Shown in pieces: positions 7,221 to 40,381 of a DNA stretch of 64,000 bases; position 1 is the stretch's first letter; every line of letters starts with the position of its first letter. The position numbers and the translations under genes were made by a program. This stretch comes from Escherichia phage HermannAdler_Bas98. The stretch lies in the sequence record PQ850608.1; one strand, written 5' to 3'. The notes below the pieces were generated by a model that did no database searches, had not been told where the DNA came from, and saw only the letters and a program-made list of their open reading frames with translations.

Positions 7221-7796
7221 ATGACAGATGTCGACCTGATTGACATGCTGGCAACGCGAATTGAAGAAGGTCTGGCGGCGTATAGTCGTGCAGACCTTTC
7301 TGCTGTTCCGGTCCAGAAAAAATACCAACCGACTCAACAGGGCATTCCGACTGGTGATCAGATTTGGTTTAACCTTTTATTCTCAGTCCCATTCGGTTGG
7401 TCAATGAGAAAGAATGAATTTGTCAATGATGAATCTCAATTCGTTAATGGCAAATTTAAAGATATTGAAGATCAGATATATGCAACACGTTTTCAAATTA
7501 GCGGCTTATTTCCAGAAGTTCCTGGCAATCCAGAAAAGCCTACGGCTAATGACGTTTTGACTTATTTAGCAAGATTCATAACCCACAAGGCTAATTTGAG
7601 GGATTGGTTTAAAAGGCATCAAGCTTCAGTATATAGAGTCGACATGAACAACAATGAAAAGTTCTATGACGACATGTCTCAGTTTGAATCGTTTCCTTCT
7701 TTTGATTTGGTAATCCTTCACAGAAACGCAATTTCAATTGACACGCCTGCTGTTGCAAGAGCTGTTAATAACGATTTAGGCGATATTCCGGTGTGA
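7221..7796 (+). CDS. hypothetical protein
   Basis: ATG 7221 after GAGGTG. Confidence 0.55.
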   Translation: MTDVDLIDMLATRIEEGLAAYSRADLSAVPVQKKYQPTQQGIPTGDQIWFNLLFSVPFGWSMRKNEFVNDESQFVNGKFKDIEDQIYATRFQISGLFPEVPGNPEKPTANDVLTYLARFITHKANLRDWFKRHQASVYRVDMNNNEKFYDDMSQFESFPSFDLVILHRNAISIDTPAVARAVNNDLGDIPV

Positions 7797-7797
7797 T

Positions 7798-8283
7798 ATG
7801 ACAAAATCAAAAATGATAGAAAAACAGATAAAGGCGCTTCAATCGATGAAGGGTCTTACTGTTGAAGCAGGATGGTTTGATTCTACCAGATACCCTTCAG
7901 AAACTGGTGGGGAAGGAATGTTGGTGTCAGAAGTCGCGCGGCTTAATGAATTTGGTCACATAGCCGTTTTGAACTTTGGGCAAGGGCCAGTCAGGGTAGA
8001 AGTGCCACCCAGACCATTCATGAGATATGCCTATGAATTATTCGTTAGTGAGCGCAGTGAAATAGAGAATAAAATTGCTAAAAAGATTTTTTCCGGTAAA
8101 ATAGACGCTAGACAGGCATTAGGTCAGATTGGGCTTGCGATGGAAGCAAAGATTGTCGAATCAATTAAAAACGGACCTTGGCAAAGAAACGCCAGATATA
8201 CCGTGCGTGTGAAAGGATTCGACAAACCTTTAATTCACAGCGGCCTTATGTGGCAATCTGTCAACAGCCAAGTCATTAAATAA
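7798..8283 (+). CDS. hypothetical protein, possible tail completion/neck protein
   Basis: ATG 2 nt after upstream stop; position just before sheath-like gene. Confidence 0.45.
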   Translation: MTKSKMIEKQIKALQSMKGLTVEAGWFDSTRYPSETGGEGMLVSEVARLNEFGHIAVLNFGQGPVRVEVPPRPFMRYAYELFVSERSEIENKIAKKIFSGKIDARQALGQIGLAMEAKIVESIKNGPWQRNARYTVRVKGFDKPLIHSGLMWQSVNSQVIK

Positions 8284-25113: not shown

Positions 25114-26091
25114 TTAAAAATACTCCATATCGGTAATATCACGGAAGCATTTATACAAAGCAGAGCGCGGCACGTCGACGATGCCAAAGTTAAAGAATTT
25201 ATACGTTAGGTATTTATCGCGATAGTTCTCGCGATTCTCCCAAAGCATTTTACGCTCTGCCATAGGCATTGAACCAGCGGAGACGCGGAAAGGAATCATT
25301 TCACCTTTCTCATCCACATATTTTGGATTGACGACTACGAATGAGCCAAGGTATCCTTTCGCAACTAAACCTTCAGCCTCTTTTGAACGCTTGGTGCGAC
25401 CCAATTCGTCAATGAATGCTTCGTTGTTGTTCTCCATCATCTCAACGAAGTCTATGATCAACCCTTCTTCATCGGTCCACGGCTTGTCCTTCCACACATC
25501 ACGTGACTTCGGCGTCGCGCGGCCATGCTTATATTTGCCCGTCCAAGACTTGCCATACAAGCCTTCATAGCCAAGCTGGTCTGCTTCGATTTGCATTGCC
25601 GCGTACTGGTCCATATTTTCGATGTTGCGATATTCGAGAGCGCGAAGGAATGGACGTCGGCCATGGTCAATGAGATGTTGATTGACCTCAGCAACACGTC
25701 GATTGTACTTCTCATAACGGGCCGAGAATGGCAAATCAGGTTCGCTAAAGTCATCAAACACCCACCATGTAAAGTTAGTGATTGCATCAGTGTTCATGCA
25801 TGCAGTATAGGCCTGTTGCATGACGTTCTTGTCATTTGGATTGCCGTCGATTAGCTCTCCATCAAGTCCGTGAATTAATTCACCCAAGAAGAGGAACTCT
25901 TTTTTGATTTGAATGTTGCGCAGCGCCATGCCGGACGTGCCCATTGGCAAGTTGTCATACGCCATTGCGCGTATGCCATCGACCTTGAATGACAATCCGC
26001 AAGGCAGCGGCACGTCTTCGCCGCGCTCGATTATTTGCTTACGCTGGCAACCCTTCATTGGTTTTAATGCTTTGATTTCTCCTGCCATCAC
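25114..26091 (-). CDS. ATP-dependent DNA ligase
   Basis: Motif I FKVDGIR (KxDG) and motif IV-like EGLVAKG. Confidence 0.65.
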   Translation of the reverse strand: MMAGEIKALKPMKGCQRKQIIERGEDVPLPCGLSFKVDGIRAMAYDNLPMGTSGMALRNIQIKKEFLFLGELIHGLDGELIDGNPNDKNVMQQAYTACMNTDAITNFTWWVFDDFSEPDLPFSARYEKYNRRVAEVNQHLIDHGRRPFLRALEYRNIENMDQYAAMQIEADQLGYEGLYGKSWTGKYKHGRATPKSRDVWKDKPWTDEEGLIIDFVEMMENNNEAFIDELGRTKRSKEAEGLVAKGYLGSFVVVNPKYVDEKGEMIPFRVSAGSMPMAERKMLWENRENYRDKYLTYKFFNFGIVDVPRSALYKCFRDITDMEYF

Positions 26092-26681
26092 TCAAACTCC
26101 TTATTCATCACTTGTTCCAGCGCATAGGCGTAATCCTGATCAGTCGATTTGATAAACGTGCCGTTGTACATGACGCCTTTGCGGTCTTTGATGTCTTCGT
26201 AGGCAGCTTGCGCACAGTCGGATAAGCGAAGGCCATAATCATGAGCTACGCCGGAAAGGTAATCGACTGCGGCCATGATGGTGACGTCAATATCCATGGT
26301 TTGATTCTTGGCAATAGCATCACCAAGTCGTCCAAGGGTCTTTGCCAGGCGAAGGATAAATGAATGAGGGTGAGCGCCTTTATCAGCGCAACCGCCGCCA
26401 TTAATGTTTTCGATTTCAGCACCGTTTTGCGCTGCCAGGATGGTCAACACAACAAGGCAATCGCCAATGTCGTCCTTAATTGCAGCTTGCAAGTCACAGA
26501 TGGCCTGCTCTGTATATCCAATTTCAGGGTCGAAGAACACAAGGTCATGGAGTTGATCAACGTGGTCGGTTAACTCCCCAAACTCGCTGATAAGCTTCGG
26601 GTATTGGTCCTTAAGGTCGCAACCTTGGATGATGTTACGGTCAGAAGCCCACTGGCGAATGTTTGCATAAATCTGTTTCAT
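26088..26681 (-). CDS. MazG-like nucleotide pyrophosphohydrolase
   Basis: Two all-alpha repeats with EFGELTDHV...DIGDCLVVLTILAAQNG pattern. Confidence 0.5.
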   Translation of the reverse strand: MKQIYANIRQWASDRNIIQGCDLKDQYPKLISEFGELTDHVDQLHDLVFFDPEIGYTEQAICDLQAAIKDDIGDCLVVLTILAAQNGAEIENINGGGCADKGAHPHSFILRLAKTLGRLGDAIAKNQTMDIDVTIMAAVDYLSGVAHDYGLRLSDCAQAAYEDIKDRKGVMYNGTFIKSTDQDYAYALEQVMNKEFE

Positions 26682-34434: not shown

Positions 34435-34488
34435 ATTAGCCTCCTACAAAAAGGCCGCCCATTAGGACGGCCACAGATTCACGATTCG

Positions 34489-35040
34489 TTATACAGTGTA
34501 CGGAGTACCTTCTTGATTCAAGCGCACGATAAACTTCAAATCAACGCCGATGATTTCACGCGTATCAAAGATCACATAGTTGTAACGACGTTGGCCAGCG
34601 ATGTTTGGGTTGGTGTGAGAATCAGTTACGACTTCCTGTGCAACCTGAATGCCTTCTTCGCTAAAGAACTTACGCCATTCAGCAAGTTCAGCAGCAGTCA
34701 CGTGCATACCAAGGTGGCTGACCTGATTATCGTGCGCATCGAGCATGTCGATGTTTTCATTAATCCAGTTGCAACCTTTTGTGTAGTCAAGGATTTCAAG
34801 CTCAAGAGGCTTACCAGCGCCGCCATCAGTACCGTTGCCAGCCTGATAGTTGAAGCGCAAGTCAGCTTCATTGGTGCAATCGCCGCGCTGACCTTTAAAG
34901 TCATCAGCTTCAAATACGCGACCAGTAGCAACAACGTGATCATGGAACCACTCTGTCAGGCCGATTTTAGCCAGGAAGTCCTGAGCGCGTTGAGCATCTG
35001 GAATGGACAGGGCGATTTGTTCAATTTTAAAATGTGGCAT
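34489..35040 (-). CDS. hypothetical protein, possibly glyoxalase/VOC-fold
   Basis: Two beta-alpha-beta-like halves with His-containing motifs (HDH, HLGMHV); weak. Confidence 0.3.
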   Translation of the reverse strand: MPHFKIEQIALSIPDAQRAQDFLAKIGLTEWFHDHVVATGRVFEADDFKGQRGDCTNEADLRFNYQAGNGTDGGAGKPLELEILDYTKGCNWINENIDMLDAHDNQVSHLGMHVTAAELAEWRKFFSEEGIQVAQEVVTDSHTNPNIAGQRRYNYVIFDTREIIGVDLKFIVRLNQEGTPYTV

Positions 35041-35060
35041 TTTGTTTCCTTAATTAAATA

Positions 35061-35276
35061 TTATTGATTAATTACTGTGTTGTCTTCGTCCTGTTTCTTT
35101 TCAGGAGCGGGTGTGACAACTTCAAATTTAGGTTTGGGTAATTCACCTTTAGCGCCTGGGACTTCAACGACAATCTTTTTGTCAGGCTCAACAGGATTTG
35201 GAACTTCAAATTTGATTGTGTATCCTAATACAACAAGAAGCACTAAACCGATTACCGCTACCCAGGCTTTGTTCAT
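35061..35276 (-). CDS. small membrane-anchored protein
   Basis: N-terminal anchor MNKAWVAVIGLVLLVVLGY followed by Pro/Lys-rich tail. Confidence 0.5.
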   Translation of the reverse strand: MNKAWVAVIGLVLLVVLGYTIKFEVPNPVEPDKKIVVEVPGAKGELPKPKFEVVTPAPEKKQDEDNTVINQ

Positions 35277-35278
35277 GG

Positions 35279-35446
35279 TTATTCGCCCTTATCTTTGCCT
35301 TCTATGGAATAAGTCTCAATGGAACCGACGCGCTCGTGGTTAACCTTTGCGTTTTCGATTCTTATTACTTCAAATCCAACGCCTTCTTGATCAATCTTCA
35401 CTTCTGCCACGTCGCCAATCACTTCTACAACAACTTTGATAGTCAT
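35279..35446 (-). CDS. small protein (55 aa)
   Basis: Short ORF below ORF-track cutoff, packed between neighbours. Confidence 0.3.
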   Translation of the reverse strand: MTIKVVVEVIGDVAEVKIDQEGVGFEVIRIENAKVNHERVGSIETYSIEGKDKGE

Positions 35447-35449
35447 GAT

Positions 35450-36133
35450 TTATTTCCCAAATGGAATATCAGTACCAGACATAAAGCGCCATGCGCCCGT
35501 AATTAAGATATGGCGAATGAAGTCAGCAATTACTTGCGGCTCAGTCTCCAATCCATTCATCAATGCCTTTTTCTGGTATTCAGCGGCGTATTCAGGAGTC
35601 CATCCGCGAGTCGCGCAAACAGCATCTTCAATCTGTTTAGACATACCAGTGCCGCGCAACTTGTTAGGACTAATAGAGAATACCGTGATGCCGTATTTAG
35701 GCGTAAGCTCGTGAGCCATCTGCTTGCTAATCATAAGCGCAGCAGCCTTGGATGCATTATAACACAAGCTGGACGTCATAGGAATATGCGCAGCGTTAGA
35801 AACGATATTGATCACAAAACCTTTGTTGTCGATAAGACTTTTCAGCGCGGCCTGAGTCGTGTTGACGAAAGAGAAGGCGTTGGTGTGCATAACGCGATTG
35901 AACTCTTCGTAGTTAACATCTTCGAACCAGTTGTTGGAGTTGACGCCAGCGCAGTTGATCAAGCCTTCTACATCATATGGGCTTAAAATTTCTTTCATCT
36001 GTTTAGCGTCGCGGACGTCATATCCGTATGCTGAATCGATTCCAAGCACGTTATGACCGTAAGCGCCAAGGGTGTCAAAAATAGATTTACCAAGACCGGA
36101 ATTGGAACCTGTTACAACAATTACTTTTTTCAT
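35450..36133 (-). CDS. short-chain dehydrogenase/reductase (SDR)
   Basis: TGSNSGLGKS (TGxxxGxG) and YNASK (YxxxK) motifs. Confidence 0.75.
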   Translation of the reverse strand: MKKVIVVTGSNSGLGKSIFDTLGAYGHNVLGIDSAYGYDVRDAKQMKEILSPYDVEGLINCAGVNSNNWFEDVNYEEFNRVMHTNAFSFVNTTQAALKSLIDNKGFVINIVSNAAHIPMTSSLCYNASKAAALMISKQMAHELTPKYGITVFSISPNKLRGTGMSKQIEDAVCATRGWTPEYAAEYQKKALMNGLETEPQVIADFIRHILITGAWRFMSGTDIPFGK

Positions 36134-36198
36134 TTATTTATCCTTTTTGGACTTCGTTTCGATGAGGTAAATATAACTCATCGAAACGCACAAGTAAA

Positions 36199-37074
36199 CT
36201 ATTTATTGAAATTAATATTATGGGTGTTAACAAGACGTTCACACATGGCGCTATAAACACCATCGTCGTGTATTGAGTCTTCGTGCTTCAGGCCGCTGAT
36301 TGCGAAGCGTGTAAGCTTGACAATCTTAAGCTCGAACAGATGCCACATGTGGTAGTCTTCCGGTGTCTTCAAAGTTACGCCATTAGGGAACAACACCTGC
36401 ATAACCTGACCTACCATCACAGCGTTATCGCCATAAACGGCATTGCGCTCACGGAAGGTCGCGGCCATCGCATCAAGAATATCAGCAGCGGTTGCTGGGG
36501 CTTGTTGTTCAACTTCAACAAGTTTAGTCTCTTCTTTCCCTGTTGCACTTGGATCAACTGCTAATTGTTGCACCACTTCACCTGCCTTGCAAAGATTAAA
36601 TGTAAAGGCGATTTTATTTTGCGCCATGGAATTATAGTGCAAAGCTTCTTCTTGCATCCGCGCGAGTACGTCTTGTCGGTCGTCGAATACATTGATGATT
36701 CGATAATCGCCGTGCCGCAAAGCGTGCGATAGCCATGCAGATTTCATAATAGTTGATGGACGTTTGTCGCCATAGTCTCTCATCTTGATTGTAAATTCAT
36801 CAAAAGGGAAAACATTGTCCAGACGTTCAAAAGTCACTTGTCTGTATTTTTCTGGCCTTGCAGTCCAATATTCAACCGCCTCACCGCGAAGAGATGCCGA
36901 CTCTACTGCTGATGCAATGTGAGGATAGAACTGATCATAACCAATACCGCTGTGATAGTCATCATAGTCTGACAACGGACCTGCCACCTTGATGCGGTCT
37001 AAGCGCCAACGGTCATCAAACAGCGTTCCGTCAAGGTCGAATACGTTTAAGATTTCGCTGTTTTTAATGCTCAT
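36199..37074 (-). CDS. HAD-superfamily hydrolase with C-terminal domain of unknown function
   Basis: N-terminal VFDLDGTLFDD (HAD motif I DxDGT); C-terminal ~130 aa unrecognised. Confidence 0.55.
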   Translation of the reverse strand: MSIKNSEILNVFDLDGTLFDDRWRLDRIKVAGPLSDYDDYHSGIGYDQFYPHIASAVESASLRGEAVEYWTARPEKYRQVTFERLDNVFPFDEFTIKMRDYGDKRPSTIMKSAWLSHALRHGDYRIINVFDDRQDVLARMQEEALHYNSMAQNKIAFTFNLCKAGEVVQQLAVDPSATGKEETKLVEVEQQAPATAADILDAMAATFRERNAVYGDNAVMVGQVMQVLFPNGVTLKTPEDYHMWHLFELKIVKLTRFAISGLKHEDSIHDDGVYSAMCERLVNTHNINFNK

Positions 37075-37880
37075 CCTTTTGATACTCCATCTTTAGCAAC
37101 TGGATTGTTGGTGATTGGCATTGCACTCCAAAACTGGATGCGCAACTCTTCTTGCTGTGCCGTGGTATCCATCCAATCACGATACCAAGGGCAATGGGCT
37201 TTGCCATGACGAGGAAACGCGCATTTACCCATACCGATGCATTGCGGCTGTAATAGTGGATTTGCCCACGGGTGCACCTTGAGGACTTCCGCAACCATTG
37301 CGCGGAATACTTCTTGATACTCGCCTTGGGTGCGCGTGCACAAGCGGTTTGACGCCATCTGCTGCAGCGTGCGCAAGTTGAACTTTGCCATGATATGCGT
37401 TTGCATATTAGAAGGCAACACGGCACGTGCATCTTGAATCTCTGCGCCAGCCGCGCGAAGCTCTTGGTATAGAGCGTCAATCGTGGCCATCGCATCATCC
37501 CACTTCTCTGCCAATGAGTGATTTCTTATGTGCACATCATCAAATGCATTTTCATCATTGCAGTCAAAAGGGTGCTCGAATGCCTTCGGACGAATCGCAT
37601 CAAATGCAGACGACTCCTGAGCGCGGCTGGTGCGTTCTTGATATGCGCCTGTGCGTGTGCGTACCATCTGATGGGTCATGTTCTTTGATACAGCTGTGAT
37701 ATCAAAGATATAGTCCACAAAGTCAAAAGGAGACCTGATTGTATCAAGCATGTAGCGCCAGTGCTCTTGCTTCTCTGATTCTGTCATCTCAGAGACTGGC
37801 TTACCAGTCATGCGCGTGTTCTTTGTTTCCAGCAAAAGGTCAAGTGCATCTTGGGTGTATCGAATTAATTCAACTTTCAT
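37071..37880 (-). CDS. thyX: ThyX-like flavin-dependent thymidylate synthase homologue (divergent)
   Basis: ThyX-like blocks but signature reads RTR-X8-S (MVRTRTGAYQERTSR) instead of RHR; VLPSNMQT...NLRTLQQM block; Cys-rich C-terminal extension. Confidence 0.5.
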   Translation of the reverse strand: MKVELIRYTQDALDLLLETKNTRMTGKPVSEMTESEKQEHWRYMLDTIRSPFDFVDYIFDITAVSKNMTHQMVRTRTGAYQERTSRAQESSAFDAIRPKAFEHPFDCNDENAFDDVHIRNHSLAEKWDDAMATIDALYQELRAAGAEIQDARAVLPSNMQTHIMAKFNLRTLQQMASNRLCTRTQGEYQEVFRAMVAEVLKVHPWANPLLQPQCIGMGKCAFPRHGKAHCPWYRDWMDTTAQQEELRIQFWSAMPITNNPVAKDGVSKG

Positions 37881-37893
37881 TTTAATTATCCTA

Positions 37894-38340
37894 TTAACGG
37901 TAATTCACTAGTTGCTGATCACCAGAGAAGGTGCAATGATAAACGAATTGTGCGTTATAAAGCAACTGAAAACTTTTCTTTGGTTCATTATTAGAACTCA
38001 TTGATGTAAAGATTTCTGCACCAGAACGGTTTTCACCAATCAGGTTAATAAAGTCGCCAGTTGAACGAGGCTGAACGAAAGTGAAACGCTGCATCCACGG
38101 AGTCCGGTTGGCACCTTTTCCGGTGAATCCCTGAATCTGAATATTCAGACCTTCTTGCTCGTTCACACCGATGTAAGTGGTAATTGTTGCGCCAGTCGTC
38201 GCTGCAGTCTTGCCGTCCATCGCTTCGCAATCGTAAACAGCGATTGAATCGGAAGTACGGACAGCGGCTTCAGTCGCTTCCATATACATGGTTCCGAGAA
38301 TAGCAGTTGCGGCAAGCGCGATTCCAGTGATGCGTTTCAT
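37894..38340 (-). CDS. secreted protein of unknown function
   Basis: Signal peptide MKRITGIALAATAILGTMYMEA; two Cys in mature part. Confidence 0.5.
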   Translation of the reverse strand: MKRITGIALAATAILGTMYMEATEAAVRTSDSIAVYDCEAMDGKTAATTGATITTYIGVNEQEGLNIQIQGFTGKGANRTPWMQRFTFVQPRSTGDFINLIGENRSGAEIFTSMSSNNEPKKSFQLLYNAQFVYHCTFSGDQQLVNYR

Positions 38341-38405
38341 TTTCGTTTCCTCTATGAGTTCTGCTTCAATGATTAAAGTATACGCCCATTGAAGCAGAAA
38401 GCAAA

Positions 38406-39401
38406 TTATTTATTAGCAATATAAGCAAATTTTTGATAGTTATTTGCTTTGATGAGTTTTTCAACTTCAGCAAGGTCATGAGCGACGTCATCAAGCAAAA
38501 TGTTTCGCCAAGTAGCGAATCGACCGACACTAAATACGTTCAAATCCATGGTCAGTTGCAGGAGTAGAGCGTGTCGCAAGTCTTTCGGAATGTCGACAAT
38601 CTTGCCATACTTCTGGTCGACCTTTTCAACTTCTTCGAGAGCGATGTCACTCCATGATAGGCCAAAGGCTGTCAATACTTCGTCAACTTCTGCACGCAAC
38701 TTAATGTCACGGTAACGAGTAATGCCGCCAGCGGCTTCAACTGCGGCTTCACTTACGCTAACCAAAGGAATTGTTTCGATGATCAGCGTGTCACCAGTGA
38801 TTGATGCGCGGTAAGTTCTGACGGAGTAGTCAGGGAAGTAAATTGTCTGATACAACTCACACTTACGTTTAATCTTAAAGCGGTAAACACGAATGTTTGC
38901 TTTATCAAATGAAAAATCAAGCTTTTGATCAATCCCAGCCAGCTTCATCATAACTGGCAGCGGCGACGTGTTGATGATTGGCGTCTCGCTATAGCCGCAA
39001 AGAGTATCAACAGGAGTATTAAAGAATATGCGGTCGCCCAGTTTGTCGACAAGCTGATCATAAAAGTCATCAGGCGCAATATAACGCGTTGCAGTTTTAA
39101 GCTTCATGATTGAACGGCTGCCAAACTGATTGGTGACCTTCATGGAATACATATTGGCAAGGTTGATTGGACAATGGTCGTGGTAGTAGTTGCCGCGAAA
39201 ATACACAGCCTTGTCAACTGTCACGGCCTTAAAAGGGATTCCGGTAATACGGCTTACTTCTTCGCCGCGAAAGCGTAGCAGTGCCTTGTGCTGTGGCGCT
39301 CGCTCCCCTGCTTCGTACACAATAGAGTTCGGGAAGTGACACGCGGTGATAAGTCCTGCCAAACCGCCGCCGATAATCATTACAGGTTGTTTCATGTTCA
39401 T
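38406..39401 (-). CDS. FAD/NAD(P)-binding oxidoreductase
   Basis: N-terminal VMIIGGGLAGL dinucleotide-binding motif. Confidence 0.45.
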   Translation of the reverse strand: MNMKQPVMIIGGGLAGLITACHFPNSIVYEAGERAPQHKALLRFRGEEVSRITGIPFKAVTVDKAVYFRGNYYHDHCPINLANMYSMKVTNQFGSRSIMKLKTATRYIAPDDFYDQLVDKLGDRIFFNTPVDTLCGYSETPIINTSPLPVMMKLAGIDQKLDFSFDKANIRVYRFKIKRKCELYQTIYFPDYSVRTYRASITGDTLIIETIPLVSVSEAAVEAAGGITRYRDIKLRAEVDEVLTAFGLSWSDIALEEVEKVDQKYGKIVDIPKDLRHALLLQLTMDLNVFSVGRFATWRNILLDDVAHDLAEVEKLIKANNYQKFAYIANK

Positions 39402-39535
39402 TTGTCCTTTGTGGGTGATATGAGAAGTATAATAGCTAAATTATTTTACAGCAACAAGTCATTTCTATTTAGTACAGACGAAAAAAGACCCACAACAAGT
39501 GTGGGTCAATTACCGCTATATAACCGTCCTACAGG

Positions 39536-40381
39536 TTATTCCGCTTGATCACCGTCTTCGGCATCGTCGTTGGATTCAACATCGACAAACTCGATGTGGC
39601 CCATCTCTTCCAGCTTGCTCAGGTAGGAGCGAACGGAAGCGCCAAACAGCTGATCTTTAACTTTCTCGCCCAGCTCATCGATAGACTGCGCCACGCCAAC
39701 TTCGCCTTCTTTGATCGCCGCCAGAACGCGCCCACGGGTGGAGTGCTCCTGCGGCTGGCTCAGGCCGTTGCCAGTGTAGATGAAGTGAGTAGCTTTTGCA
39801 CGGCGCTGACCGTTTGCCTTTTTGGCAGCCTTGCGCTCTGCGATGGCTTTGCGACGTTCTTCAGCTTCTTTCTTACGCTGTTCTTTTTGCTGTTCTGCAG
39901 CTTCTTTCGCCGCGATCTTAGCAGCTTCACGCTCTGCCTTGCGTTTCGCTTTCGCTTCTTCTTTAGCCTTCTCTTTTTCGGCCTTTGCTGCAGCACGGGC
40001 TTGATCACGCTCTGCTTTCTTAGCAGCAGCTTGTTCAGCTTTCAGGCGCTTGGCTTCTTCTTTGGCCTTTGCCTTTTCGATTTCTTTTGCTGCTTTAGCG
40101 GCTTCACGCTCTGCTTTCTTAGCAGCAGCCTTTTCTGCACGCTCTTTAGCTTTCTTAGCTGCTTCTTCAGCACGCTTCTGAGCCTTCTCATCAGCAGCCT
40201 GTTTGCGCTTCAGCGCGGCTTCTTCACGCTTGGCTTGTTTTTCCTGCTCACGCTTCTGGCGTTTTTCTTCGGCTTCTTTCTTTTTAGCCAGGCGTTTTTC
40301 TTCAGCCACGCGACGACGTTCTGCTGCGGCTGCTTGTTTTTCTTCTTTAGATAATACTTTGATTGCTTCGGCCATATTCAC
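39536..40381 (-). CDS. charged low-complexity (K/E/A repeat, TolA-like) protein with C-terminal globular domain
   Basis: About 190 aa of AEEKRQKREQEKQAKR / AKKAEREAAKAAKE repeats; DNA repeats such as CACGCTCTGCTTTCTTAGCAGCAGC occur twice. Confidence 0.6.
   Translation of the reverse strand: MNMAEAIKVLSKEEKQAAAAERRRVAEEKRLAKKKEAEEKRQKREQEKQAKREEAALKRKQAADEKAQKRAEEAAKKAKERAEKAAAKKAEREAAKAAKEIEKAKAKEEAKRLKAEQAAAKKAERDQARAAAKAEKEKAKEEAKAKRKAEREAAKIAAKEAAEQQKEQRKKEAEERRKAIAERKAAKKANGQRRAKATHFIYTGNGLSQPQEHSTRGRVLAAIKEGEVGVAQSIDELGEKVKDQLFGASVRSYLSKLEEMGHIEFVDVESNDDAEDGDQAE

Follow-up and report, generated by a model that had tools for sequence, protein, structure and literature searches.

Organization of the locus

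The 64,000-nucleotide stretch of Escherichia phage HermannAdler_Bas98 DNA analysed here (record PQ850608.1; hereafter the window) is 94-96% nucleotide-identical to the Wifcevirus coliphages ManiWeber/Bas99, WFC, FEC19 and Mansfield. Wifcevirus phages are ~68-kb E. coli myoviruses and distant kin of the Pseudomonas genus Pbunavirus (PMC11990801). This work concerns a minus-strand gene cluster at positions 34489-39401 that encodes a divergent ThyX-family protein (the ThyX-like protein) together with a set of further enzymes, among them a putative flavin adenine dinucleotide (FAD)-binding protein that resembles UDP-galactopyranose mutase (the UGM-like protein). An initial annotation, made from the sequence alone, had placed the cluster inside the replication operon and had proposed two possible roles for it, ordinary supply of deoxythymidine monophosphate (dTMP) or synthesis of a modified pyrimidine for the phage DNA. 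All of the open reading frames (ORFs) that it named were found in place on the minus strand. The cluster lies between a Dda-type helicase block and the genes for an exonuclease and the alpha subunit of DNA polymerase III (Pol III alpha). Intrinsic terminators are present at both of its ends, and positions 34489-39401 therefore delimit a discrete cassette, which does sit within the replication operon but forms a separate unit there. The features are as follows, in the direction of transcription.

39487-39507, minus strand: intrinsic terminator upstream of the cassette, with an 8-bp stem and a T-run, after the gene for a 281-aa Lys/Ala/Glu-rich protein; an equivalent is annotated in Mansfield
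38406-39401, minus strand: UGM-like protein of 331 aa, putatively FAD-binding (phrog_4828); constant companion of the ThyX-like gene
37894-38340, minus strand: 148-aa protein with a signal-peptide-like N-terminal segment (sequence MKRITGIALAATAILG...)
37071-37880, minus strand: divergent ThyX-family flavoprotein, 269 aa; motif RTR..TSR, Ile in place of His53, C-terminal four-Cys extension
36199-37074, minus strand: fusion of a HAD (PNKP-type) phosphatase (residues ~1-175) and a probable DUF6378 helical domain (~185-291); phrog_4889, E 8e-120
35450-36133, minus strand: classical short-chain dehydrogenase/reductase (SDR), 227 aa, adh_short match
35279-35446, minus strand: 55-aa ORF
35061-35276, minus strand: 71-aa ORF with a hydrophobic N-terminal segment; no family match
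34489-35040, minus strand: VOC/glyoxalase-like protein, 183 aa, with conserved His/Glu; weak fold assignment
34453-34472, minus strand: intrinsic terminator closing the cassette, with an 8-bp stem (7 G-C pairs) and a T-run, preceding the exonuclease gene; annotated in Mansfield
26088-26681, minus strand, outside the cassette: MazG-like nucleotide pyrophosphatase, phrog_1992, E 1.2e-62

Co-transcription of these genes, as originally proposed, is plausible because the intergenic gaps within the cassette are short (-4 to 65 nt), the ATG of the HAD fusion overlaps the TGA of the ThyX-like gene (ATGA), and two strong minus-strand terminators bracket exactly this block.

A divergent ThyX-family protein

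The central protein of the cassette matches Pfam Thy1 (PF02511) with 103.4 bits (E 1.7e-29; gathering cut-off 24.8), and its predicted structure has the ThyX fold (model pLDDT 86), aligning in Foldseek to Thermotoga maritima ThyX 1O26 with a TM score of 0.74 (E 2.7e-10). Identity to solved ThyX proteins is ~20%, and the score against the NCBIfam equivalog model TIGR02170 (thyX) is 78.1 bits, under the cut-off of 87.9 bits. An ungapped alignment pairs R78-H79-R80-x7-S88-G89-R90-Y91 of the T. maritima enzyme with R74-T75-R76-x7-T84-S85-R86-A87 of the ThyX-like protein. The initial annotation had described this region as an RTR-X8-S signature; the change from RHR to RTR is real, and neither a gap nor the X8 spacing is needed, since the serine is replaced by threonine and another serine stands one position on. 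The protein does not carry the family signature RHR-x7-S, and Thr75 is invariant in 51 homologs. Further substitutions that had gone unremarked replace His53 with Ile48, Ser83 with Ala and His178 with Arg, as well as Tyr91 with Ala. In the T. maritima ThyX-folate structures, His53 presumably stacks on the folate/NADPH ring. Its equivalent Ile48 is invariant within the ThyX-like clade, and the T. maritima H53A entry 4GTF, a crystal with FAD, deoxyuridine monophosphate (dUMP) and folate, was among the structural-search matches.

The residues that contact dUMP and FAD are all identical, such that R78, R80, E86, R90, R147, N163, R165 and R174 of T. maritima correspond to R74, R76, E82, R86, R152, N168, R170 and R179. 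In the homolog alignment these positions are invariant except for E82, which is Gln in some homologs, and N168. The Cys-rich C-terminal extension reported earlier was also borne out: Cys181, Cys214, Cys220 and Cys230 are invariant across the 51 homologs of the Wifcevirus/Pbunavirus branch, one of the four sits within the ThyX core, and together they could form a metal or Fe-S site. Remoter members of the clade have R[TN]R and share T-x-R and RTQxEYQ motifs, without the Cys extension. Mycobacteriophage Gumball gp68 (366 aa) represents a second, unrelated divergent ThyX-like clade, in which the equivalent of His53 is likewise lost; its gene neighbours that for Pol III alpha, and neither a UGM-like nor a DUF6378 gene occurs within 4 kb of it. 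Divergence of the ThyX family in phages is therefore broader than the module described here.

What would such a protein do? Because R74, R76, R86, R152, R179 and N168/R170 are kept, it could still be an ordinary thymidylate synthase, which is the label that all public records give to the gene. On this account the cassette would provide dTMP through a divergent but working synthase whose flavin is reduced or regenerated by the UGM-like protein, the HAD, SDR and VOC genes would be unrelated auxiliaries, and any DNA modification would be the work of other genes. We regard this as possible, if doubtful. It agrees with the clear Thy1 membership and ThyX fold, with the conserved dUMP/FAD-binding arginines, with the position of the cassette among replication genes and with the very fast replication of Wifcevirus (PMC11990801), and the true modification enzymes could sit among the many other ORFs of unknown function in the genome. 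It agrees poorly with the loss of the His53 equivalent and the score under the equivalog cut-off. The initial annotation had further suggested that the SDR could act as a pteridine reductase in such a pathway. ThyX releases tetrahydrofolate, not dihydrofolate, so a pteridine reductase is unnecessary, a further point against ordinary dTMP supply.

Conservation of the ThyX-like/UGM-like pair

The gene first described as an FAD/NAD-binding oxidoreductase has an FAD motif (an N-terminal GxGxxG); its product is called UGM-like here and is the partner of the ThyX-like protein. The protein has no Pfam (including GLF) or NCBIfam match, its PDB profile search returned a match to the dinucleotide-binding motif only, and an identification as Glf by profile was rejected, the hhalign comparison with E. 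coli Glf being not significant (probability 3.5%). More generally, the UGM-like protein, the HAD fusion, DUF6378 and the VOC-like protein gave nothing significant when compared with the PDB by sequence or profile, and structural search alone was informative.

The ThyX-like protein is found at a coverage of at least 80% in 356 phage records and the UGM-like protein in 358-361, with identical genus counts for the two (Pseudomonas 292, Escherichia 26, Serratia 9). In 80 IMG/VR loci retrieved with a ThyX-like alignment, the UGM-like gene lies directly upstream of the ThyX-like gene wherever the flank exists, frequently with a 4-nt stop/start overlap, while the downstream genes encode DUF6378 in ~75 loci, HAD in ~50, SDR in 37 and VOC in ~30. 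A survey of 185,579 prokaryotic species (one genome each) yielded six loci, all of them contigs of metagenome-assembled genomes with the same pair. The UGM-like/ThyX-like pair is thus a conserved module that is essentially phage-only. It extends to a Cronobacter podophage, a Ralstonia phage and 200-kb Rhizobium phages; the Pbunaviruses have a trio of UGM-like, ThyX-like and HAD-DUF6378 genes without SDR and VOC, and the Myosmarvirus, Pantoea and Erwinia relatives have all five enzymes. Other phage ThyX proteins (at most 30% identity) occur in Gordonia, Mycobacterium, Microbacterium and Bacillus phages, genera missing from the UGM-like list, and at two such canonical ThyX loci that were examined, those of Gumball (RQR motif) and a Desulfovibrio phage (canonical RHR), there is no UGM-like gene within 4 kb. 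Simple dTMP supply leaves unexplained why UGM-like and DUF6378 proteins, often with SDR and VOC, accompany this ThyX clade alone and do so across unrelated morphotypes. In six metagenomic loci a radical SAM/SPASM protein (~320 aa) is encoded a few kb downstream of the module and may be an extra tailoring enzyme in some lineages.

Modified DNA in carriers of the module

Two bodies of published work bear on phages with this module. In a 2025 preprint, Yee et al. used restriction digests and liquid chromatography-mass spectrometry to show that the Pbunaviruses F8 and 14-1 swap about one quarter of their thymidines for derivatives of 362 and 390 Da. The authors interpret the additions as a sugar alcohol of erythrose/threose and as a derivative of a cyclised aldopentose; the sites that resisted digestion were those containing TG, and no known modification genes were found (PMC12191111). 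Both F8 and 14-1 carry the UGM-like/ThyX-like/HAD-DUF6378 trio. Humolli et al. reported that Wifceviruses resist almost all restriction-modification (RM) systems tested, 'without known protection', and are sensitive to EcoP1_I (PMC11990801). We found no paper that links the cassette to either the modification or the RM-resistance phenotype.

The two Pbunaviruses bear different modifications on a background of ~96% protein identity, and a divergence hot spot between them surrounds the ThyX-like gene. The HAD/DUF6378 protein is the most divergent of the module, with 81% identity and an indel of 16 aa, and identity in the small ORFs on either side is 78-83%. The most divergent protein overall, gp070 (57%), is a coiled-coil/zinc-ribbon protein that is missing from Wifcevirus. 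As pointers to a gene that determines the modification, these differences are suggestive only.

A T-before-G footprint in the window

Does the window itself carry a trace of protection at T before G? GATC occurs at 104 sites vs 247 expected, and at 103 of the 104 a T lies immediately 5' on one strand or both, 50 of them being TGATCA. A single GATC lacks a flanking T, where ~55 would be expected (P ~4e-33), AGATCT, CGATCG and GGATCC have zero copies, and the fraction of GATC preceded by T (0.74) is the highest of all 256 tetramers (median 0.32). Retention of 103 T-flanked sites out of 104 requires that other GATC sites be purged, and makes sense only if the flanking T protects; the simplest reading of these counts is that GATC is strongly counter-selected in these hosts and would survive only where an adjacent T-before-G is protected. 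T before G makes up 26.5% of all T in the window, near the 'one quarter' of F8. Hexamer palindromes give a similar division, with none of the 16 that contain TG/CA depleted vs 23 of the 48 others (Fisher P 2e-4). Since neither GAATTC nor AAGCTT is avoided and EcoRI gives no restriction, TT is a possible second protected context, but control phages also avoid TT palindromes little.

The TGATC rule also applies to all Wifcevirus loci, to Myosmarvirus and Pantoea phage Kyle, and to many metagenomic loci with the module, and is weaker but significant in F8 and 14-1; phages T1, lambda and T7 show no TGATC pattern. The Cronobacter podophage Ss1 (42 kb) has 51 GATC sites, of which 33 are TGATCA and none lacks a flanking T (P 1e-17), and its depleted palindromes number 0 of 16 with TG vs 19 of 48 others. 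According to BLASTP, what Ss1 and the window have in common is limited, apart from a tail-fibre fragment, to Pol III alpha, an epsilon-like exonuclease and the ThyX-like and UGM-like proteins. That the TG footprint follows the pair into this podophage is a further point that ordinary dTMP supply does not accommodate.

Several other word counts were recorded for the whole window. CTAG (31 vs 247 expected) and CCGG (74 vs 181 expected) are scarce, and 18 hexamer palindromes are absent, including the sites of XbaI, BamHI, KpnI, SacI, XhoI, BglII, NheI, AvrII, SmaI and ApaI. Over-represented words include AAGCTT (55 vs 18), TGATCA (50 vs 18) and CAGCAG/CTGCTG (68 vs 26 expected from base composition).

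A different view of these counts is that Wifcevirus DNA is unmodified, that protein anti-restriction factors account for the resistance, and that TGATC arises from other selection, for example a functional TGATCA motif combined with GATC avoidance. The heavy avoidance of restriction sites, with 18 palindromes lost, is typical of phages at least partly exposed to restriction; sensitivity to EcoP1_I (PMC11990801) and the excess of TGATCA itself, at 50 copies, fit as well. We nevertheless consider this view unlikely, since the near-complete purge of GATC sites without a flanking T is sensible only with a protective T, the pattern recurs in several genera that share the module, and modification at precisely TG has been proven for the related Pbunavirus (PMC12191111).

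A candidate pathway for thymidine modification

On balance, we lean toward the view that the cassette represents, in Wifcevirus, a conserved phage module whose product is a hypermodified thymidine of the sugar or polyol type, placed at T before G and protective against restriction. Of the two roles first proposed, a modified pyrimidine is thus preferred over dTMP supply, given the modified Pbunavirus carriers of the module, the TG footprint and the sub-equivalog score of the ThyX-like protein. Pfam and PHROG scans of the larger ORFs of the window recognised no glycosyltransferase, kinase, dioxygenase (TET/JBP), transglycosylase or ThyA, and the cassette is therefore the only non-replication enzyme set found besides the MazG-like protein. 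It is the best candidate for the Pbunavirus-type TG thymidine modification pathway. We infer both that the cassette causes the modification and what each of its enzymes contributes.

Several points weigh against this interpretation. TG specificity calls for a DNA-acting enzyme, and no such protein is evident, which is the main weakness; the ThyX active site is built for a mononucleotide, and neither a glycosyltransferase nor a 5-hydroxymethyluracil (hmU) DNA kinase was recognised among the scanned larger ORFs. The EcoRI resistance of Wifcevirus is beyond what a TG-only modification explains, Bas99 holding 38 EcoRI and 92 EcoCFT_II sites despite its resistance. The module is always accompanied by Pol III alpha and the exonuclease, so the co-occurrence of its genes could reflect vertical inheritance of a replication block, and the footprint could in principle be polymerase-dependent. 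The GATC footprint is missing from some module carriers (Rhizobium, Ralstonia), and loss of the motif His is not confined to the ThyX-like clade, as the RQR of Gumball occurs with no UGM-like neighbour. Lambda spares TG palindromes to a similar degree (1 of 16 depleted vs 18 of 48), so the hexamer test is weak alone and we do not lean on it. The retained dUMP- and FAD-binding residues count here as well. Lastly, a modified base in Wifcevirus DNA is something that we infer from the footprint and the published RM resistance.

How might a modified thymidine be made? In the known paradigm, a modified dUMP is made in the nucleotide pool, incorporated in place of T and then converted on the DNA, in a sequence-specific manner, to the hypermodified base or to plain T (PMC8989533). 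This paradigm leads to the proposal that the ThyX-like protein, with its UGM-like partner, supplies a C5-functionalised nucleotide. The ThyX-like flavoenzyme would bind dUMP and FAD and functionalise C5 of dUMP, most likely yielding 5-hydroxymethyl-dUMP or a related activated or alkylated derivative and not merely dTMP. The UGM-like FAD protein could be a second flavin catalyst or a reductase, or could act on the sugar moiety or on DNA. The HAD/DUF6378, SDR and VOC-like proteins would prepare or trim a sugar or sugar-alcohol group, or the nucleotide pool; for example, an aldose phosphate might be reduced and dephosphorylated to an alditol.

The product of the cassette might instead be a modified nucleotide or nucleoside that is never put into DNA, such as an inhibitor of a host enzyme or a decoy or signal in defence, with the ThyX-like and UGM-like proteins as its core. 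The cassette does resemble a small-molecule pathway, with two flavoenzymes, a phosphatase, a reductase and a VOC-like protein, and no DNA-acting enzyme was recognised among the scanned ORFs. Such a product would leave both the TG footprint and the measured modification of Pbunavirus DNA unexplained, and we hold it to be highly improbable.

Within the hypermodification reading, a bolder variant can also be drawn, which we think rather unlikely. Here the ThyX-like protein would dispense with methylene-tetrahydrofolate, and its reduced flavin would pass an aldehyde carbon, taken from a sugar or sugar phosphate, to C5 of dUMP, giving a C-C-linked 5-(polyhydroxyalkyl)-deoxyuridine. The UGM-like protein would open or activate the sugar, the HAD domain would remove a terminal phosphate, and the SDR and VOC-like proteins would tailor the chain. 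ThyX can use free formaldehyde in such a way (PDB 7NDW/7NDZ, among the structural-search matches). By mass arithmetic, deoxyuridine plus a pentose plus 2H minus H2O comes to 362 Da and deoxyuridine plus a hexose minus H2O to 390 Da, which match the F8 and 14-1 nucleosides. The sugar-aldehyde variant fits these masses, the loss of His53 and the precedent of phage SP-15, and its product would be an oxygenated analogue of the SP-15 dihydroxypentyl-uracil.

Other proteins of the cassette and its surroundings

The HAD-phosphatase fusion had been recognised correctly, with a D13-L-D-G-T motif and a Pfam HAD_PNKP score of 33.4 bits (cut-off 27.6). Its C-terminal half probably corresponds to DUF6378 (PF19905), which is detected in 13 of 17 aligned homologs (best 2.9e-7); the domain in the window has no match of its own at E<=1 and shares the DUF6378 motifs YG, K..R and H.DS.HD..VY. 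DUF6378 is an uncharacterised helical domain that is a stand-alone gene in many relatives. PHROG labels had raised the idea of kinship with the T7 gp1.7 nucleotide kinase, and hhalign shows no relation. In Cronobacter phage Ss1, orf32 (7561-8241 of the locus), which follows the ThyX-like gene, joins HAD to a different small C-terminal domain that matches 'nucleotide kinase' PHROGs and not DUF6378. Because this HAD protein bears another C-terminal domain, it suggests domain swapping at the HAD-fusion position of the module.

The SDR assignment is equally sound (adh_short, 109 bits; TGxxxGxG, a catalytic Ser and YNASK). The protein is a generic FabG/glucose-dehydrogenase-like SDR, far under every NCBIfam equivalog cut-off, and, judging from the Asp that ends beta-2, it may prefer NAD(H). 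For the suspected VOC-fold protein the evidence is weak only, as the Glyoxalase_4 match, at 17.2 bits (E 0.0066), falls short of the cut-off of 27 and profile comparison with the PDB gave no match; residues E80, E82, H109, H113 and H142 are invariant, and the gene is annotated as glyoxalase family in Mansfield and Hera. The interval between the SDR and VOC-like genes (35061-35446) is variable among Wifcevirus isolates, with two small ORFs here and one in Bas99 and Mansfield. The 148-aa protein has no family match in Pfam or PHROG and is confined to Wifcevirus among the loci examined, and its membership in the pathway is doubtful.

Outside the cassette, the MazG-like gene named in the initial annotation exists, is also conserved in Pbunavirus and may contribute to nucleotide-pool control. 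The 281-aa Lys/Ala/Glu-rich protein (phrog_4765; 39536-40381, minus strand) is kept directly upstream of the cassette across the Pbunavirus-like supergroup and is labelled TolA, structural protein or transcription factor in different public records.

Implications

Which genes stand behind the hypermodified thymidines found in Pbunavirus, on which Pseudomonas phage therapy relies heavily, and what is the basis of the RM resistance of Wifcevirus? The cassette could answer both questions, and it narrows them to four to six directly testable genes, in phages (BASEL Bas98-101) that can now be propagated on derivatives of E. coli K-12. If our preferred reading of a TG thymidine modification module is true, the ThyX fold and a UGM-like flavoprotein would join the enzymology of DNA hypermodification, the module would span hundreds of isolates and ~2000 metagenomic proteins, and the TGATC rule would be a simple sequence predictor of TG-modified genomes. 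If the sugar-aldehyde variant is true, the ThyX fold would gain a new class of reaction, and DNA hypermodification a novel route. Modifications of this kind have consequences for sequencing, cloning and phage engineering, for host range, and for how sensitive a phage is to modification-dependent nucleases like END.

Comparison with known systems

Canonical ThyX (TM0449, 1O26) and the ThyX-like protein have in common the fold, the Pfam family and the dUMP/FAD-binding Arg and Asn residues. The ThyX-like protein differs by RTR, by Thr-Ser in place of Ser88-Gly89, by Ala for Tyr91, Ile for His53 and Arg for His178, and also by the added four-Cys C-terminal segment, the sub-equivalog score and the constant pairing with a UGM-like gene. 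That partner shares an N-terminal GxGxxG FAD motif and a C-terminal GR[FL]A.[WY][RK] with UDP-galactopyranose mutase (Glf; 4DSG, 1I8T), but is only 17% identical to it, is shorter (331 aa vs 367-473 aa) and matches no Pfam or NCBIfam model. A genuine UGM is used for DNA glycosylation by phage RL38J1 (PMC13326640).

The closest comparison is with the Pbunaviruses F8 and 14-1, in which orthologs of the UGM-like, ThyX-like and HAD/DUF6378 genes, identically ordered, adjoin Pol III alpha and the modification occurs at TG, the context of the footprint in the window. They differ in that SDR and VOC are missing, that F8 DNA is cut by EcoRI whereas Wifcevirus is resistant in vivo, and that the GATC footprint of F8 is much weaker. 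Phages ViI, M6, PhiW-14, SP10 and PaMx11 likewise replace T partially and in specific contexts with a bulky C5 derivative that blocks restriction, the remaining positions ending as canonical T in phages of the ViI type (PMC8989533). ViI-type pathways use a ThyA-family dUMP hydroxymethylase, a P-loop kinase for 5-hmU in DNA (5-HMUDK) and aGPT-Pplase transferases to attach amino acids or polyamines, whereas the relatives F8 and 14-1 add a sugar or polyol; no ThyA-like hydroxymethylase, 5-HMUDK or aGPT-Pplase was found among the larger ORFs of the window that were scanned.

Two other systems bear on how thymidylate synthase families may be turned to new chemistry. In SP-15, whose DNA contains 5-(4',5'-dihydroxypentyl)uracil, a highly divergent Thy1-family protein, gp130, abuts the FabG-like SDR gp129 (PMC5977210). 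The titles of the 1978 work of Walker & Mandel, as cited there, indicate that the SP-15 base is made as a triphosphate and that its side chain takes ribose label. The Thy1-SDR adjacency and the C5 polyhydroxyalkyl uracil resemble the setting of the cassette, but SP-15 has no UGM-like partner and the function of gp130 is only hypothesised. Homology of gp130 and gp129 to the ThyX-like protein and SDR was rejected, as no sequence similarity is detectable, and SP-15 is for this reason only an analogy. The second system consists of ThyA homologs repurposed as flavin-dependent dCMP 5-hydroxylases, RB69 gp48 and DLP3 gp80 (Lee et al. 2026, PMC13326640), in which a thymidylate-synthase family has been redirected, with a change of cofactor, to make a 'handle' nucleotide for sugar-type hypermodification. 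These enzymes have the ThyA and not the ThyX fold, act on cytosine and not uracil, and belong to phages in which glycosyltransferases are present. Set beside these examples, the cassette of HermannAdler_Bas98 and its relatives seems to be a novel enzymatic form of thymidine hypermodification in phages.

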